Shown: positions 55,762 to 63,302 of the stretch, in pieces
Layout of the letters: the number at the start of each line of letters is the position of its first letter
How positions within the stretch are numbered: the stretch's first letter is position 1
Assembly: GCA_020635205.1 (NCBI GenBank)
Contig: JACKAE010000001.1
Coordinates: 22,059 to 86,058 of the forward strand
DNA: 64,000 nt
Source of the DNA: Ignavibacteria bacterium
GTDB taxonomy: Bacteria > Bacteroidota > Ignavibacteria > OLB7
Direction: 5' to 3'
Notes under the pieces: model-generated
Database searches by the model: none
Told to the model about the DNA's origin: nothing
The model's input: the letters and a program-made list of their open reading frames with translations, nothing else
Translations under genes and position numbers: made by a program

Positions 55762-56685
55762 ATGCTTCGATTTAAAGCTGACTACAGAACGATCGCCTAC
55801 ATGGTCGCTACCACCGGATTGCTGATAGCCCAGTGGGTTATTGGTTACGTCCACCCGGTTCTCTTCCCTCTCTCCCTGTTTATGGCTGTTGCCGTTGCAG
55901 TGATTGCCCACAACCACAATCACCTCCCGACGTGGAAAAACCGGACGCTGAATACTTTGACAGATTACTGGTTGACTCTCTTCTATGGATTCCCTGCCTT
56001 TGCTTGGAAGCCAACACACAACCTGAACCATCACGTTCTCAATAACCGTGAGGGAGACTATACGATCACGTGGCGAGTTACTGAGGGGAATCACTTCTTC
56101 TCGTTAATGAGCTATCCTTCAATCAGCAGTTTCTTTCAGCAGACTCCGATTAAAGGATACTTGAAGCACCTGCGCGTGAAGGATAAGCGGAGTTTCTGGC
56201 TGGCAATTGGCCAGTATGCTGCGCTCGCAATTTTTGTTGGCGTTGCGTTGATTGTTGACTGGAAGAAAGCACTCTTCTTTATCATCATTCCGCAGCAGTT
56301 TGCTCTCTTTAGCATTCTTCTCTTCAACTATGTGCAGCACGTTCACGCGAACGAGGAATCGGAGTGGAACCACTCTCGCAACTTTGTTGGGCCGATGTTG
56401 AACCTATTCCTTTTCAACAACGGGTTCCACACAATTCACCACGAACGTGCCGGCATCCACTGGAGCTTGACGCCGAAAGAGCACGCAAAGATCGAACACC
56501 ATATCGACGACTCACTGAAGGAACGGAGCTTCTGGTGGTATATGATTCGGACATATATCCTTAGTCCGGTTGTTCCCTCATTCCGCACGAAGTCGATGCG
56601 GCTGGAGCGGATACGGCAAGAAGAAGAGGCACGGCGAAGAGAGGGAACGAGTCAAGTTGTTAAGGAAGAACAGGTATTGGCGTAA
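55762..56685 (+). CDS. Membrane fatty-acid desaturase family protein (possibly carotenoid ketolase-like).
   Basis: Three His-boxes ('HNHNH', 'HNLNHH', 'FHTIHHERAGIHWS') in a multi-TM protein. Confidence 0.65.
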   Translation: MLRFKADYRTIAYMVATTGLLIAQWVIGYVHPVLFPLSLFMAVAVAVIAHNHNHLPTWKNRTLNTLTDYWLTLFYGFPAFAWKPTHNLNHHVLNNREGDYTITWRVTEGNHFFSLMSYPSISSFFQQTPIKGYLKHLRVKDKRSFWLAIGQYAALAIFVGVALIVDWKKALFFIIIPQQFALFSILLFNYVQHVHANEESEWNHSRNFVGPMLNLFLFNNGFHTIHHERAGIHWSLTPKEHAKIEHHIDDSLKERSFWWYMIRTYILSPVVPSFRTKSMRLERIRQEEEARRREGTSQVVKEEQVLA

Positions 56686-56871
56686 GAGAGTTTTGGAATT
56701 CAAAATTCAAAAGTAAAAATTCAAAATGATTTCGGGATTCGGATTGGGGATTTCGGACTGAGATACATCAGAAAGGTGTCGTACTTGACAACCGGCTCAA
56801 ATTTGATTTTGGAATTCGGATTGCGAATTTCGGATTGAGTGCTTGACACCAGGTTGAAGTCAACATATCTT

Positions 56872-57018
56872 CCCCAATCCCCAATCCCCAATCCCCAATC
56901 CCCAATCCCCAATCCCCAATCCCCAATCCCCAATCCCCAATCCCCAATCCCCAATCCCCAATCCCCAATCCCCAATCCCCAATCCCCAATCCCCAATCCC
57001 CAATCCCCAATCCCCAAT
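56872..57018. repeat. Heptanucleotide simple-sequence repeat (CCCCAAT), about 21 copies, in the 5' region of the PDO-rhodanese gene.
   Basis: Perfect tandem 7-mers from ~56872 to ~57018. They sit downstream of a TTGACA-like hexamer at ~56844 and 127 nt upstream of the ATG at 57145. Confidence 0.9.
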
Positions 57019-57144
57019 CTCAAGATCGTCTGCTCCAATCGGTTACGAGTGTACCGAAAGATCGGCCTGTGTCGTATGTTGGAACGATTGTTTGATGAAC
57101 TCAATATTAATTCAAGAATTCAAGACAGAGGAGAGGATATTCCT

Positions 57145-58760: not shown

Positions 58761-59309
58761 ATGCCGGACAACGTCACGCTCTTCTCGTTGATTCAGTGGT
58801 CACTACTCCACCTCATTATTCCTCTGGCCATTCTCCAACGACTCGTGGAGCTGCAGAGAGCCAAACGGAATGGGCGGAAGTTGCGGGGGAGGGGAGCCGT
58901 AGAGTTTGGGAGAGACCACTACCCGGCAATTGTCACGATGCACACCTTCTGGTTCGTGGTAATGATTGCCGAAATTATTCTTCTCTCCCGTCCAATCAAT
59001 CCCTTCTGGCCTGTTCTGCTACCAATTTGGCTCGGGGCGCAAGGATTGCGCTACTGGACACTCCGAACCCTTGGGGAGCGGTGGACAACGCGGGTGTTTG
59101 TCCTTCCGGGTGAGAAGCCTGTCACTGGAGGGCCGTTCAACTATCTCCGCCACCCGAACTATGTAGCCGTGGTTGTGGAGATTCTTGTGCTCCCCCTGAT
59201 CTTCGGTTGCTACATCACCGCAATTGTTTTCTCTCTGGTCAACGCTGTTCTCCTTTGGATACGGATAAGGGCAGAGGAGCGGGGGTGGAGGGAGGTTGGG
59301 ATGAGCTAA
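58761..59309 (+). CDS. Isoprenylcysteine carboxyl methyltransferase (ICMT/PEMT) family membrane protein.
   Basis: 'FNYLRHPNYVAVVVEILVLPLIF' is the characteristic ICMT-family RHPxY motif. Multi-TM, 182 aa. Confidence 0.65.
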   Translation: MPDNVTLFSLIQWSLLHLIIPLAILQRLVELQRAKRNGRKLRGRGAVEFGRDHYPAIVTMHTFWFVVMIAEIILLSRPINPFWPVLLPIWLGAQGLRYWTLRTLGERWTTRVFVLPGEKPVTGGPFNYLRHPNYVAVVVEILVLPLIFGCYITAIVFSLVNAVLLWIRIRAEERGWREVGMS

Positions 59310-59396
59310 GAAAGCATGCTGAATATCGCTTGCATATAGTTTCCATGAGCAGACTTTCCTGTGCTTCTCATACACATTCCCTTCACAATCCCTTTT

Positions 59397-60077
59397 TTAA
59401 TTTTTAATTTTGACTTTTGAATTGATCCTCCCTGTTTTCCGCACAACAGCCGCCACCTCGCCGAGCAGTGCAGTTTCCGGACTTCCATCTACTACTCCCA
59501 CTTTTTGGTAGTGCCGGTTTACAGCCGTAAGATATTTCCGTGGGCCAGCCTGCTCCAGTCTGCGGACAACGGAGCTATTGCCTACCAAAGCGAAAACCAA
59601 CATGCCATCTTCAACTTCTGGCGTTTGCCTTACTACAATCAGATCTCCTTTGAATATCCCCTCCTTATCCATTCCATCGTCGGTAACGATTGCGACGAAG
59701 GCGTTCTCTGTTGGCATAGTTTCTGGATCGGGAGTGAACATGCCACGCGGGTTCATGAAGATAGAGTATGGGTTCGATGAATGTCCGTCGCCAACAATGG
59801 GAAGCTGTTTTGCAGAAGACCCTGACGTTAGGGGAGAGATGAGACTCGGGTCAACTAAGGCGATTCCCCGAGCCTTCCCCTTGTGCCTGATGATATATCC
59901 CTTTACCTCCAGAGCATTCAGGTGTTCGAAGACGCCGTTCGTGGAGCGCAGCTTGAATTCCTTAGCAATTTCTGGAATTGTCGGTGGTGCTTGCTCCTCC
60001 TCAATGCGGGAGCGGATGAACTCGTATATTTCGTTTTGACGTGGCGTTAAGGAACCACGTCCTGAGCGGGAAGCCAT
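59397..60077 (-). CDS. lexA: LexA-like repressor (S24-fold) with substituted cleavage site and catalytic dyad. Predicted non-autocleavable.
   Basis: N-terminal wHTH 'LTPRQNEIYEFIRSRIEEEQAPPTIPEIAKEFKLRSTNGVFEHLNALEVKGYIIRHKGKARGIAL' closely resembles the E. coli LexA DNA-binding domain. C-terminal 'VTDDGMDKEGIFKGDLIVV' aligns to 'VSGMSMKDIGIMDGDLLAV' with Ser119 replaced by Gly. 'VVRRLEQAG' aligns to 'VKRLKKQG' with Lys156 replaced by Arg. The Ala-Gly cleavage site is replaced by 'HSS'. Confidence 0.7.
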   Translation of the reverse strand: MASRSGRGSLTPRQNEIYEFIRSRIEEEQAPPTIPEIAKEFKLRSTNGVFEHLNALEVKGYIIRHKGKARGIALVDPSLISPLTSGSSAKQLPIVGDGHSSNPYSIFMNPRGMFTPDPETMPTENAFVAIVTDDGMDKEGIFKGDLIVVRQTPEVEDGMLVFALVGNSSVVRRLEQAGPRKYLTAVNRHYQKVGVVDGSPETALLGEVAAVVRKTGRINSKVKIKN

Positions 60078-60344
60078 GTTAGTCTTAACATGATAGTTAT
60101 CATCAGTCAGAAACCTGAAAATACAACTGAACAGCTACTGCCGCACTACGATCTACGAACTGTTATCCGCAATCTTCCCCTATGGTTCGTCCAGTAGTCT
60201 TTGATCTGACAACAGGTTCACCGATTTTATGGGGATGAAACGTCACGTTTGGCAACCAAAAGGTTTGTGCCGACTATCTACTTCGAGGTATTCAGGAACT
60301 TCTCTGGAAATTATGTTGGAGCAGTGCTCAACGGAGGAAAAGAA

Positions 60345-60722
60345 ATGATTAAGGGAATCGGAGTGGATAACGTCGATGTTCGGCGGATAGCCCGCACCTT
60401 GCAGCAGTATGGAGAGCGGTTCGAGCAGAAGATCTTTACTCCCGAAGAAATTGTCTACTGCCGTTGGAGTCCAGAACGGACTGCGGAACGATACGCTGCC
60501 CGATTTGCCGCAAAAGAGGCTTTCGCTAAAGCGATAGGGACTGGTGTCCGCTTAGGGTTCCGTTGGAGGGAAGTCTCAGTGGGCAAAGAGAAGACTGGGC
60601 GTCCAATTCTCTATCTCTCCGGTGGTATGGCTGAACGCTATGGACACCTTCGTTCCCATATCTCGCTGAGCCATACCGACGATATGGCAATCGCGATGAT
60701 CGTGTTAGAAGAGGAGTTATAA
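60345..60722 (+). CDS. acpS: Holo-[acyl-carrier-protein] synthase (4'-phosphopantetheinyl transferase).
   Basis: 'MIKGIGVDNVDVRRI...ARFAAKEAFAKAIGTG...SLSHTDDMAIAMIVLE' is the canonical AcpS. GGAGGA ribosome-binding site upstream of the ATG at 60345. Confidence 0.8.
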   Translation: MIKGIGVDNVDVRRIARTLQQYGERFEQKIFTPEEIVYCRWSPERTAERYAARFAAKEAFAKAIGTGVRLGFRWREVSVGKEKTGRPILYLSGGMAERYGHLRSHISLSHTDDMAIAMIVLEEEL

Positions 60723-60989: not shown

Positions 60990-61529
60990 GTGGATGAAGC
61001 ACGTGCTGGGAATTCGCTTGGCTTTGATGAGTTAGTAGAACGATATCGTGAAAAAGCTCTCCGCTTGGTTGCTTCCACTTTAGGGGGGCGGGAAGATCTC
61101 GAAGATATAGTACAGGAAGTATTTGTGAAGGTCTATCGATCCCTTGACCGTTTTCGTGGTGACGCATCTTTTTCTACCTATCTCTACACAGTTACCGTCA
61201 ATCGTTGCCGAGATGAGCTGCGCAAATCAAAAATCCGCAAGTTTTTCTCCTTTGATGATTGGTTTGATAAGGGAGGAAGTAGCAGTAACGAGTTGACTGC
61301 TGCTAATGGTCACGGACTTGAGCAAGAAGAGCGAGTAGAAGCGGTGCGTGCGGCAATGCGGCGGTTACCGGAGCAGACCAGTATGTTACTCCACTTGCGG
61401 GAGATTGAAGAGTTGAGCTATAAGGATCTGGCCACGATCTTTAATGTGGAGATCGGGACGATCAAATCTCGTCTTGCGCGTGCTCGGGATAGGTTGCGGG
61501 AGGAACTGCTACCATTCATGGAAGAGTGA
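60990..61529 (+). CDS. ECF-type RNA polymerase sigma-70 factor.
   Basis: Region 2 'EDIVQEVFVKVYRSLDRFRGDASFSTYLYTVTVNRCRDELRK'. Region 4 'LSYKDLATIFNVEIGTIKSRLARARDRLREEL'. Confidence 0.8.
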   Translation: MDEARAGNSLGFDELVERYREKALRLVASTLGGREDLEDIVQEVFVKVYRSLDRFRGDASFSTYLYTVTVNRCRDELRKSKIRKFFSFDDWFDKGGSSSNELTAANGHGLEQEERVEAVRAAMRRLPEQTSMLLHLREIEELSYKDLATIFNVEIGTIKSRLARARDRLREELLPFMEE

Positions 61530-61664
61530 GGAATCGGGAGCTAATATCTTTCACTTCTACTGTCTTCGACGGTAGCGTGTGAAGTGCACAGAGCAGGATA
61601 ACTGTTCATCTCGGCAAAAAAAAGAAGTGGCTATCGAAAGATTATCGACGTTTTACACTGACAA

Positions 61665-63302
61665 ATGAGCTATAAACTCACAGAGAAAGAAAAAACTCTT
61701 CTCTCCGCCTACCATGATGGGGAGTTGAGTAGCGCGGAACATGCTGAGGTGGAGAAGCTGTTGAGGCGATCCACTGAAGCACAGAGTTGGTTGCGTGGGG
61801 CAGATGCAGTTCGGAGGCTTTCCATGACTGCCGTTGTTCTGCCTGAGGCGGCAAGCCGTTCTACAAAGCTAACTGGAAGTGCAATTGCTGCTGCATCCCG
61901 CAGAGGTGGTGTGGGCACAGTTTCATATATGGTTCACTCTCCTTGGACTGCTGTTGGTCTCCTATCGTTGCTTCTGATTGGGGCTGTCTACTTGATGGAT
62001 CCATTTGCTCCGAGCAGTGAAGGGCTGACTGCTACGAATAGAGTTGTGTCAACATCAGGGGAAATGTCTCCTGAAACCGTGACATTGCCAGCAAGTGATA
62101 CCAAATCAATGGTTCCGCCAATTACGCCGCGCGATCTAATTGGGTTTGCAGTAGATGGGATGCTTCCGGTGAACGCGGATAGAACGAAATATCTTGCTGT
62201 AGGCTCCCCCAATCACTCCAGCGAAGAGATGGTTCGCGAACTTGAATCTCAGTTGTCTGGCCTTGCCAGCGTTCACCTCCTGACGCTCGACTCTCTGGCA
62301 AAACTTCTTCGGTCGGCCGTGTTGCAAGCCCGTAATGGAACCTATGCTGTTCGACAAGATTTGTCTGCCCTTCGTGAGGATGTTATCGAACAGATAGAAC
62401 GTGCTCCGCTCTCAGCGAAAACCAGTGAACAACTTACCAAGGCAAAGCAGCAAGCAAAGCAGGTGCGCGAGGATGTCGAAGATCGTCTCGCCATGGAAAT
62501 GGAGCGAATGCGGAGAGAATTGATGGCTGGAGGAAGTGAGCCATATCTATTGGTAGATGCTACAACCGTAGCGGAAGCACCTACCGGAGATCACCAAGTA
62601 GTCCTCTCCTTTGAACAGATCGGTAAACGTTTTGATATCGTGCTTCTAAATCCAGAAGGAGTTACGGTGCGGGATCAGAATGTGAATATTGCCGCGTTGC
62701 TACCTTCTGCTTCTGGACGGCCAACTTCTCATGGCAAGCAAATGCGACCCCAGTCTTCTCGGTCGAAACCAGATACTCAGCCGGCAGGTTCATCAACAAA
62801 TTTTGCTTGGGAGGAACATGTCACCAGCGTCTACATGGCTGATGTGACCATTACTCTCAGCTCTAATCAAAGTCAGATTATTATCAGTAACGATGAAGAG
62901 ACTACGCTGAATTCTGGTTTCTTCGATATAGAAGAGAATTCCCCTACGTTTTACACTCTTAGCAACTATCTGACAAAGCTGACCGACAGCCTGAACGCGA
63001 CTGTCAATCGTATTATTACTGATACGGCAACTTCGGCACGTGAGCGTGCAGGGCAAATTCTGCGGGTACAAGATGATTATCGTCAACGTGTTGGACGGAT
63101 AATTGAAGTGATCCGGACTCACCAGAAAAACGCAGATGACCGAGATTCAGCAACAACTTCGGATGATGACGCCGCTTCTGTTGAAGAAGACCGTGAAGAT
63201 ATTAGAACTGATGGACAGTCTCTCGAAAGTGCCCTACGTGATGATGCTGCCGACGCTAATTCTCCCTGTTCTTTACAGGAGAACTGTACAGGAGTATCAT
63301 AA
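61665..63302 (+). CDS. Anti-sigma factor with a single TM helix and a large extracytoplasmic domain. Cognate of the upstream ECF sigma.
   Basis: N-terminal anti-sigma motif 'LLSAYHDGELSSAEHAEVEKLL'. TM helix 'WTAVGLLSLLLIGAVYLM'. Lies 135 bp downstream of the sigma gene. Confidence 0.65.
   Translation: MSYKLTEKEKTLLSAYHDGELSSAEHAEVEKLLRRSTEAQSWLRGADAVRRLSMTAVVLPEAASRSTKLTGSAIAAASRRGGVGTVSYMVHSPWTAVGLLSLLLIGAVYLMDPFAPSSEGLTATNRVVSTSGEMSPETVTLPASDTKSMVPPITPRDLIGFAVDGMLPVNADRTKYLAVGSPNHSSEEMVRELESQLSGLASVHLLTLDSLAKLLRSAVLQARNGTYAVRQDLSALREDVIEQIERAPLSAKTSEQLTKAKQQAKQVREDVEDRLAMEMERMRRELMAGGSEPYLLVDATTVAEAPTGDHQVVLSFEQIGKRFDIVLLNPEGVTVRDQNVNIAALLPSASGRPTSHGKQMRPQSSRSKPDTQPAGSSTNFAWEEHVTSVYMADVTITLSSNQSQIIISNDEETTLNSGFFDIEENSPTFYTLSNYLTKLTDSLNATVNRIITDTATSARERAGQILRVQDDYRQRVGRIIEVIRTHQKNADDRDSATTSDDDAASVEEDREDIRTDGQSLESALRDDAADANSPCSLQENCTGVS

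Follow-up and report, generated by a model that had tools for sequence, protein, structure and literature searches.

In textbook accounts, bacteria switch on their SOS response through the self-cleavage of LexA. The LexA of Synechocystis sp. PCC 6803 (Sll1626) lacks both the Ala-Gly scissile bond and Ser119 and yields no cleavage products, and it controls non-SOS genes in a graded rather than an on/off manner, apparently tuned by modification; it is unusual among the cyanobacterial LexAs analysed (PMC1524924, PMC3091678, PMC7567884). The Bacteroidia have no LexA and use phage CI-like S24 repressors in which the catalytic residues are kept (PMC8565304), and the LexA of Balneolaeota is associated with an A/T-rich direct-repeat motif, TTACACATATTTTWTACATA, and a regulon with recA and translesion polymerases (Kilic et al. 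2020, PMC7739468). Here we describe a lexA-like gene in a 64,000-nucleotide stretch of an Ignavibacteria bacterium genome (assembly GCA_020635205.1, contig JACKAE010000001.1, positions 22,059 to 86,058; the whole stretch is referred to below as the window), the product of which has the architecture of LexA and none of the residues on which self-cleavage depends, and which belongs to a large clade sharing this loss.

The window protein is a real LexA homologue with its winged helix-turn-helix (wHTH) and S24 fold intact, as the initial annotation of this DNA had proposed from the sequence. In Pfam, residues 9-71 match PF01726 (LexA_DNA_bind; E 1.8e-21, profile positions 3-65 of 65) and residues 118-197 match PF00717 (Peptidase_S24; E 2.1e-13), and the protein scores 126.8 bits against the NCBIfam lexA equivalog TIGR00498, above the cut-off of 110.95. 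It is 100% identical to a public record (P0001) labelled 'transcriptional repressor LexA [Ignavibacteriae bacterium]', and the closest species genome is a Candidatus Kapaibacterium metagenome-assembled genome (MAG) at 95% identity; NCBI taxonomy places Kapaibacterium in the Bacteroidota, within the Fibrobacteres-Chlorobi-Bacteroidetes (FCB) group. An AlphaFold2 (AF2) model, for which 41 homologues were the input, has a mean predicted local distance difference test (pLDDT) score of 85, with values above 90 in the C-terminal domain and low values solely at the N-terminus and in the linker (residues 78-87). The N-terminal domain of the model comprises helices at 12-28, 34-40 and 46-58 followed by a beta wing, and matches 1lea with a template-modelling (TM) score of 0.89. 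The top PDB folds for the whole model are full-length LexA structures (3k2z, 1jhh, 3jso and 8trg), and Foldseek matches to LexA C-terminal domains have TM scores of 0.8-0.89.

What is missing is the apparatus of self-cleavage. HMMER alignment against E. coli LexA structures pairs RVAAGEP with DGHSSNP, GMSMK with DDGMD and VKRL with VRRL (the longer pairings, E. coli chains first, are LPLVGRVAAGEP with LPIVGDGHSSNP, VSGMSMKDIGI with VTDDGMDKEGI, and VTVKRLKK with SVVRRLEQ). The resulting changes are A84-G85 to S100-S101 (with H99 at the position of A83), S119 to G135 and K156 to R172; the codons read CAT TCA TCG for H-S-S, GAC GAT GGA ATG for D-D-G-M, and CGC AGA for R-R (Table 1). In a MAFFT alignment one loop gap is shifted, yet again there is no Ala-Gly, Ser or Lys at these positions. 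A search of the cleavage-site loop of the window protein for A-G, C-G and G-G dipeptides found none. The protein thus combines the two domains expected of a TIGR00498 LexA with the absence of both the scissile Ala-Gly or Cys-Gly and the Ser119/Lys156 dyad, and the three substitutions that the initial annotation had read from the sequence stand.

Could the protein nonetheless be a canonical cleavable LexA, with the substitutions being alignment artefacts and the dyad and Ala-Gly lying at shifted positions? It does pass a curated equivalog cut-off, and public records do call it LexA. The explanation is contradicted by the alignments and the absent dipeptides, and we regard it as exceedingly improbable. 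Three independent alignments concur on the lost residues, and the canonical sequences aligned alongside (n=74) fall in perfect register as AGSK. Nor was a shifted alternative, which the initial annotation had recognized would overturn its reading, found: when conserved Ser, Lys, His or Cys residues were sought in the C-terminal domain of 69 diverse members of the clade described below, there were none, so that no alternative nucleophile or base is in sight. S119A and K156A substitutions block LexA cleavage (and PDB LexA entries bear these mutant names). It is therefore very likely, judged from its residues, that the window protein is unable to self-cleave via the canonical mechanism; RecA*-stimulated autocleavage is likewise predicted to be negative from the missing residues. 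The view of the initial annotation that this is not a canonical SOS switch is well supported at the sequence level by the missing scissile bond and dyad.

The substitutions are lineage-wide, and far more widely so than expected when the initial annotation raised that possibility. First, all 43 aligned homologues, down to 38% identity, have (S/A)(S/A/E)NP at the former cleavage site, DD(G/A/S)M at the former nucleophile and Arg for Lys156, and never Ala-Gly. Second, among contigs sampled at one genome per species, the 11 Kapaibacteria-type and the three Rhodothermales loci are all catalytically 'dead', and the next-nearest matches, from Latescibacterota and Gemmatimonadota, are canonical (GRVAAGEP, KGESMRD, TVKRY). 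Third, DD(G/A)M together with Arg is present in 118 of 118 Rhodothermales-type homologues. Fourth, a profile search of 1.84 billion cluster representatives (50% identity clusters) returned 291 matches at E <= 1e-30, and a neighbour-joining tree was built from 142 full-length sequences, mostly the top-150 representatives; 72 of these lack the dyad and 70 are canonical (AGSK), and 63 of the 72 dead sequences fall in one clade with no canonical sequence within it. The catalytic loss is ancestral to this large, old and monophyletic clade, which spans Kapaibacteria, Kryptoniota and Rhodothermales, lineages that branch deeply among the relatives of the Bacteroidetes.

The signature of the clade, taken over 69 diverse dead members, is G117D in 96%, S119 replaced by Gly or Ala, and K156R in 100%, position 156 being Arg in all 69 dead members versus Lys in all 75 canonical sequences. 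Positions T154 and N171, 99% conserved in canonical LexA, are free in dead members, and E152, near-invariant in canonical LexA, is also lost. We define the dead-LexA clade by Asp117, Gly/Ala/Ser119 and Arg156 (E. coli numbering) together with a LexA wHTH; the corresponding residues of the window protein are D133, G135 and R172, and it has the wHTH. Named members include Candidatus Thermokryptus mobilis (Kryptoniota), Candidatus Kapabacteria, Rhodocaloribacter litoris, Salinibacter sp. 10B and Salinivenus, and there are further MAGs labelled Rhodothermales or 'Bacteroidota'. No description of such a clade was found in the literature on LexA of Ignavibacteria, Salinibacter or Rhodothermus, or on loss of the Ser-Lys dyad. 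Three sequences outside the main dead clade (P0090, P0181 and P0185) show intermediate states: one keeps Ala-Gly and Ser119 beside Asp117 and Arg156, and two keep Gly117 with Ser lost and Lys replaced by Arg. They could represent either stepping stones or losses that occurred independently.

Purifying selection on the dead domain is very strong. Compared with the relative at 95% amino acid identity (locus L001), dN/dS is 0.029 overall, 0.064 in the DNA-binding domain and 0.010 across residues 90-215, which comprise the former cleavage loop and the dead S24 domain; compared with the relative at 86% identity (L002) it is 0.072 overall and 0.031 across residues 90-215. In an alignment of 41 sequences (50-82% identity) 49 columns are invariant, and the former cleavage loop (IPIVGxGxSSNPFSIFMNPxG) and the segment DDGMDxEGIxKGD are among the best-conserved parts of the family. 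The selection analysis contradicts the idea that the gene is a decaying, non-functional relic heading for loss, a fate that might be suggested by the reduction of the neighbouring HAD-family gene to a scar in the window genome and by the complete loss of LexA in the Bacteroidia proper (PMC8565304). Because dN/dS of the C-terminal domain is as low as 0.01 the gene is not decaying, and with dN/dS values in the range 0.01-0.07, the invariant columns, an open reading frame (ORF) that is intact in more than 170 homologues and a confident AF2 fold, we consider a relic highly improbable.

Members of the clade also appear to remain DNA-binding proteins. In nine Rhodothermales loci (L012-L014, L023, L024 and L033-L036) the dead lexA is divergent from mraZ-rsmH-ftsL-ftsI, and an 18-bp palindrome with the consensus GGTGAAAATATTTTCACC is found within 180 nt upstream of the gene, in two copies 32-55 bp apart in eight of the nine loci and in one copy in L035; the R. 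litoris boxes are GGTGATATTATTTACACC and AGTGAAAAAATATTCACC. A position matrix for this operator recovered sites outside the set from which it was built (those of L035 and the distal boxes of L012-L014 and L023), and in the 69 kb scanned at a 14-bit threshold the sole other site is a borderline 14.0-bit match downstream in L012. The conserved paired palindromes are good comparative evidence that dead-clade members would still act as dimeric, autoregulated DNA-binding proteins. On the mraZ side of the same Rhodothermales loci there are CCCCAC direct repeats that resemble MraZ boxes. Among the canonical neighbours, in which the lexA box has the form TGAAC-N4-GTTCA, four loci (L015-L018, from Latescibacterota and Gemmatimonadota) carry a textbook TGAACTAATGTTCA box between TTGACG and TATATT, approximately 100-130 nt upstream of lexA, and these boxes are a useful positive control for an autoregulated lexA promoter.

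Searches for an operator in the Kapaibacteria branch, to which the window protein belongs, used 19 non-redundant orthologous upstream regions taken from contigs encoding homologues; a metagenome contig scan yielded only 6 loci. Enumeration of dyads in the 19 regions (4- and 5-nt arms, spacers of 0-10, inverted and direct) gave counts at chance level relative to shuffles (P 0.46-0.63), and a listing of long imperfect palindromes in each upstream region revealed no common site. Expectation-maximization (EM) motif discovery of the OOPS type (one site per sequence), at widths of 12-16 with and without a palindrome constraint, gave best motifs of approximately 11-12 bits for the 19 regions, none palindromic and with no shuffle control against which to set them. 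The Rhodothermales operator matrix has a top score of 13.5 bits in the window, level with the shuffle mean of 12.8, and no score above 8 in the Kapaibacteria upstream regions; this is consistent with the different sequence of the recognition helix, which is STNGVFEHLNAL or STNGVNDLLNAL in Kapaibacteria versus SVSGVHKQVRAL or STNGVFKLVTAL in Rhodothermales. The canonical GAAC-N4-GTTC has one match in the 64-kb window versus 1.6 expected, and the window lacks a second lexA as well as any recA, umuDC, uvr or SOS-type box, the repair genes of this genome lying outside it. In some relatives the whole lexA spacer is just 26-66 bp.

Taken together, the window protein is probably a non-autocleaving LexA pseudo-peptidase that is still a DNA-binding regulator and not a RecA-triggered switch. 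The S24 'self-cleaving' domain would have been turned into a pseudo-peptidase through which the protein still dimerises, binding DNA as a repressor that RecA*-stimulated autoproteolysis could not inactivate. Without autoproteolytic inactivation, its activity would be constitutive or tuned otherwise, for example through its expression level, its turnover or its modification, or by means of a ligand or partner acting at the former cleavage loop and cleft, which are conserved. The former active site is probably filled by a salt bridge between Asp117 and Arg156, since the two are co-conserved. Several points weigh against this interpretation. The EM, dyad, palindrome and matrix searches found no operator or regulon for the Kapaibacteria branch, so that we infer DNA binding by the window protein only from the conservation of its domain. 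A second, canonical SOS regulator may be encoded elsewhere in the genome, outside the 64-kb window. The argument for non-cleavage proceeds from residue identity and established mutant data, and that for the putative Asp117-Arg156 contact from co-conservation.

The main alternative, conceivable if rather unlikely, is that the protein remains responsive to DNA damage through some mechanism besides self-cleavage, such as cleavage or degradation in trans (by a partner metalloprotease as in ImmR/ImmA or DdrO/IrrE, or by Lon or ClpXP), titration by RecA* without cleavage, or an anti-repressor. The former cleavage loop is not only among the best-conserved but also among the most confidently modelled segments, which suggests a continuing role in some interaction; paired palindromes apparently serve for autoregulation in the Rhodothermales branch, as they do for classical LexA; and the LexA regulon of Balneolaeota, a neighbouring lineage, includes recA and translesion polymerases (PMC7739468). 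However, the gene has no conserved operon partner of the kind such routes could use. In most loci it is monocistronic and convergent with the gene downstream of it, and the identity of the downstream genes differs between loci; a conserved protease or anti-repressor partner in an operon was rejected on these grounds. Moreover, recA, umuDC, uvr and SOS-type boxes are absent from the window, and the conserved neighbours – acpS and an extracytoplasmic function (ECF) sigma factor in Kapaibacteria, mraZ and the division and cell wall (dcw) cluster in Rhodothermales – are not repair genes.

The divergent arrangement of the dead lexA with these neighbours in the two branches invites a broader and more speculative proposal, to which we give little weight at present. 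The dead-LexA clade may date from an ancient rewiring event at the root of the lineages related to Bacteroidota, in which the switch was lost once, with Asp117-Arg156 replacing Ser-Lys, and the repressor was then kept for hundreds of millions of years to regulate cell-envelope, division or lipid loci instead of DNA repair, the former loop having become a sensor or partner-binding element. If true, this would also explain how the Bacteroidia were able to discard LexA and recruit phage CI-like S24 repressors for SOS.

The spacer between lexA and acpS contains two perfect palindromes, of 6-2-6 and 6-1-6 form. The initial annotation described both and offered the first as a candidate operator. Both exist and are perfect, although the coordinates given were off by 2 (60090-60103 rather than 60092-60105 for the first, and 60238-60250 rather than ~60236-60248 for the second), and a role as operators is not borne out. 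The whole window averages 0.41 perfect palindromes (arms of 6 nt, spacer of 0-4 nt) per 268 bp, and 2000 first-order Markov resamplings of the intergenic region give probabilities of 0.26 for at least one and 0.064 for at least two; the two palindromes are no more than chance would provide and are statistically ordinary. The 64-kb window has one match to ATGATA-N2-TATCAT with up to two mismatches, the palindrome itself, versus 2.0 expected, and no further copies of the second palindrome. Aligned across the window, L001 and L002, the first has the sequences ATGATAACTATCAT, ATGACAACTATTAT and GTGACAATTACCGT, respectively, and the complementarity of its arms declines from 6/6 to 4/6 to 2/6. The second is missing from L001, which has AAGCCTCTTGCTT at that site, and it straddles the junction of a gene deletion (see below).

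Several features could still be taken to favor ATGATA-N2-TATCAT as the operator of the window protein, with lexA autoregulated. It is a perfect 14-bp palindrome, near in length to LexA boxes (12-16 bp), and the lexA ATG at 60077 follows 12 nt downstream of it; the block around it is somewhat better conserved than its flanks in L001; and there is a likeness between its left half, RTGAYAAY (GTGACAAT in L002), and the half-site GTGAAAAT of Rhodothermales. Against these, the symmetry decays in relatives as close as 95% and 86% identity, TGA and TCA stand 2 bp closer together than they do in the Rhodothermales box, and neither the window nor any of the Kapaibacteria upstream regions gives a significant score with the Rhodothermales matrix. 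One relative (L030) has an entire spacer of 26 bp with no palindrome, no dyad is common to the 19 orthologues, and such a palindrome is expected in 26% of such spacers. An operator at this position is improbable, and we infer that neither spacer palindrome is an operator of the window protein. A further perfect 7-4-7 inverted repeat, CATGTTA-AGAC-TAACATG at 60075-60092, takes in the start codon of lexA and shares sequence with the right arm of the first palindrome. It folds into the centroid hairpin of the leader RNA and is only 5/7 conserved in L001; the folding energy of the leader is ordinary (z = -0.29), and the repeat was rejected as a special feature.

The second palindrome has a simple origin. 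A tblastn search with the intact HAD-family protein of L007 recovers the fragments MVRPVVFDL, DNRFTDFMGMKRH and FGNQKVCADYLLRGIQELL within the spacer, corresponding to the first ~22 and the last ~19 codons of a HAD-family hydrolase gene in different frames. The N-terminal piece ends at ~60246 and the C-terminal piece starts at 60248, within the palindrome. The HAD gene is intact between lexA and acpS in L025-L027, L002 and L004-L009, and L001 also has only a remnant.

Elsewhere in the spacer, two blocks, GTTGTATTTTCAGG and GATAACAGTTCGTAGA, are invariant across the window, L001 and L002, the flanks of GTTGTATTTTCAGG varying. They are likely to be back-to-back promoter elements for lexA and for the divergent transcript, because in orthologous loci the lexA ATG is preceded at 5-60 nt by TATCTT(C/T), and the divergent gene, on the opposite strand, is preceded at 25-35 nt by a (C/G)TATCT(T/C)-type element. 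The TATCTT(C/T) elements resemble the Bacteroidota -7 motif TAnnTTTG. A scan of 59300-60400 for sigma-70 promoters and terminators found nothing, as expected for a Bacteroidota-type promoter. The features of the locus are collected in Table 1.

Table 1. Features of the lexA-like gene, the lexA-acpS spacer and the divergent neighbour (positions in the window).
Feature	Position	Strand	Basis or remark
lexA-like coding sequence, 226 aa; predicted catalytically dead LexA-family repressor	59397-60077	-	ORF, Pfam, TIGR00498, AF2
R172-R173 replacing K156-R157; general base lost	59559-59564	-	alignments
S24-fold C-terminal domain, residues 118-197 (Pfam); retained, probably as a pseudo-peptidase module	59487-59726	-	PF00717, AF2, Foldseek, dN/dS
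D133-D134-G135-M136 replacing G117-M118-S119-M120; nucleophile lost	59670-59681	-	alignments
H99-S100-S101 replacing E. coli A83-A84-G85 (former scissile bond)	59775-59783	-	HMMER alignment RVAAGEP/DGHSSNP
N-terminal LexA winged helix-turn-helix, residues 9-71	59865-60053	-	PF01726, AF2 model, 1lea match
Perfect 6-2-6 palindrome ATGATAGTTATCAT (proposed operator)	60090-60103		probably chance or lineage-private
Conserved non-coding block GTTGTATTTTCAGG, likely lexA promoter element	60114-60127	-	identical in window, L001 and L002
Conserved block TCTACGAACTGTTATC (in alignment GATAACAGTTCGTAGA), likely promoter element of the divergent HAD-remnant/acpS transcript	60152-60167	+	identical in window, L001 and L002
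HAD-family hydrolase internal-deletion scar, N- and C-terminal fragments in different frames	60182-60304	+	tblastn, synteny
Perfect 6-1-6 palindrome AAACGTCACGTTT, arising as a by-product where the HAD deletion was joined	60238-60250		position and tblastn
acpS (holo-ACP synthase), conserved divergent neighbour	60345-60722	+	PF01648, TIGR00516, synteny

The start of acpS is placed at the ATG at 60345, since TIGR00516 matches from residue 33 of the longer TTG-initiated ORF. Across Kapaibacteria the order of genes is conserved. The side convergent with lexA has a fatty-acid desaturase, a metallo-beta-lactamase (MBL)/rhodanese gene and ICMT, and the divergent side has the HAD gene (where present), acpS, the ECF sigma factor, a gene in the position expected of an anti-sigma factor, and groES/EL. 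In the window the ECF sigma factor gene lies at 60990-61529 (Sigma70_r2/r4) and is followed by a 545-aa ORF, the two occupying 60990-63302; the 545-aa product is probably the anti-sigma factor of the ECF sigma factor, and both genes are found in synteny with acpS and lexA throughout Kapaibacteria, with groES/groEL next in several relatives. Two further repeats were seen. A tandem array of the heptamer TCCCCAA (56871-57019; 21.3 copies, 100% matches) lies in the gap that separates the fatty-acid desaturase gene (55762-56685) from the MBL/rhodanese gene, and it yields spurious 'PIPNPQS' and 'GLGIGDW' repeat ORFs on both strands. In L031, approximately 60-160 nt upstream of lexA, there is a long inverted repeat of GTTTCAAGTGTCAAG units, missing in the other loci and possibly a mobile or REP-like element.

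These observations matter for annotation as well as for the history of the SOS response. Public pipelines label the window protein plain 'transcriptional repressor LexA', and given a whole clade without the catalytic apparatus, a lexA annotation is no basis for inferring SOS regulation in these lineages. An S24 fold kept for a non-catalytic job would offer a natural pseudo-enzyme to study, and the loss of LexA in the Bacteroidetes lineage, a long-standing puzzle, gains a testable intermediate. Experiments are feasible in the cultured Rhodocaloribacter litoris, for which there is a complete genome and the predicted operator described above.

How does the window protein compare with systems already described? 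With canonical LexA (E. coli, TIGR00498, MEROPS S24) it shares the wHTH and the S24 beta-domain and approximately 30% identity over the full length, and its best PDB matches in both sequence and structure are all LexA. It departs from canonical LexA in lacking Ala84-Gly85, Ser119, Lys156, T154, N171 and E152, in having Asp for Gly117, and in that no SOS box was detected upstream of the gene. The 'non-canonical LexA' of Bacteroidetes (HTH_3 plus S24, COG2932; Sanchez-Osuna et al. 2021, PMC8565304) is likewise an S24-family repressor from the same superphylum; however, it has the phage CI-type five-helix HTH PF01381 with Ala-Gly and Ser-Lys kept, whereas the window protein has PF01726 and has lost them all, and it is therefore not a member of that group. 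Balneolaeota LexA comes from a neighbouring FCB lineage and has an unusual motif, but that motif is a direct repeat and the regulon is of SOS type; no Balneola names occur among the 120 best matches to a Rhodothermales-type query.

A more distant parallel is SipA of Streptococcus pyogenes, a pseudo-enzyme of the same peptidase clan (SF), which we take to lack the Ser/Lys dyad and which is a weak structural match to the model (E ~0.02). The account cited here describes SipA (PDB 4n31) as a signal-peptidase-like protein of pilus polymerisation (PMC4049620). It differs from the window protein in belonging to an S26-like family and in not being DNA-binding, and the resemblance is a remote structural one only.

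A further comparison is with Synechocystis LexA. Both proteins have lost Ala-Gly and the Ser nucleophile while being otherwise LexA-like. The details differ. Synechocystis LexA has Gly-Gly at the cleavage site and Asp in place of Ser, and of the dyad only the Ser is described as missing, whereas the window protein has Ser-Ser, Gly in place of Ser, Arg in place of Lys and Asp in place of Gly117. Because the substitutions differ and the phyla are distant, the two losses are presumably independent. They differ in extent too: Synechocystis LexA is singled out among cyanobacteria, whereas the loss seen in the window protein defines a whole clade across three FCB phyla. Synechocystis LexA is nonetheless the closest functional precedent for the window protein.

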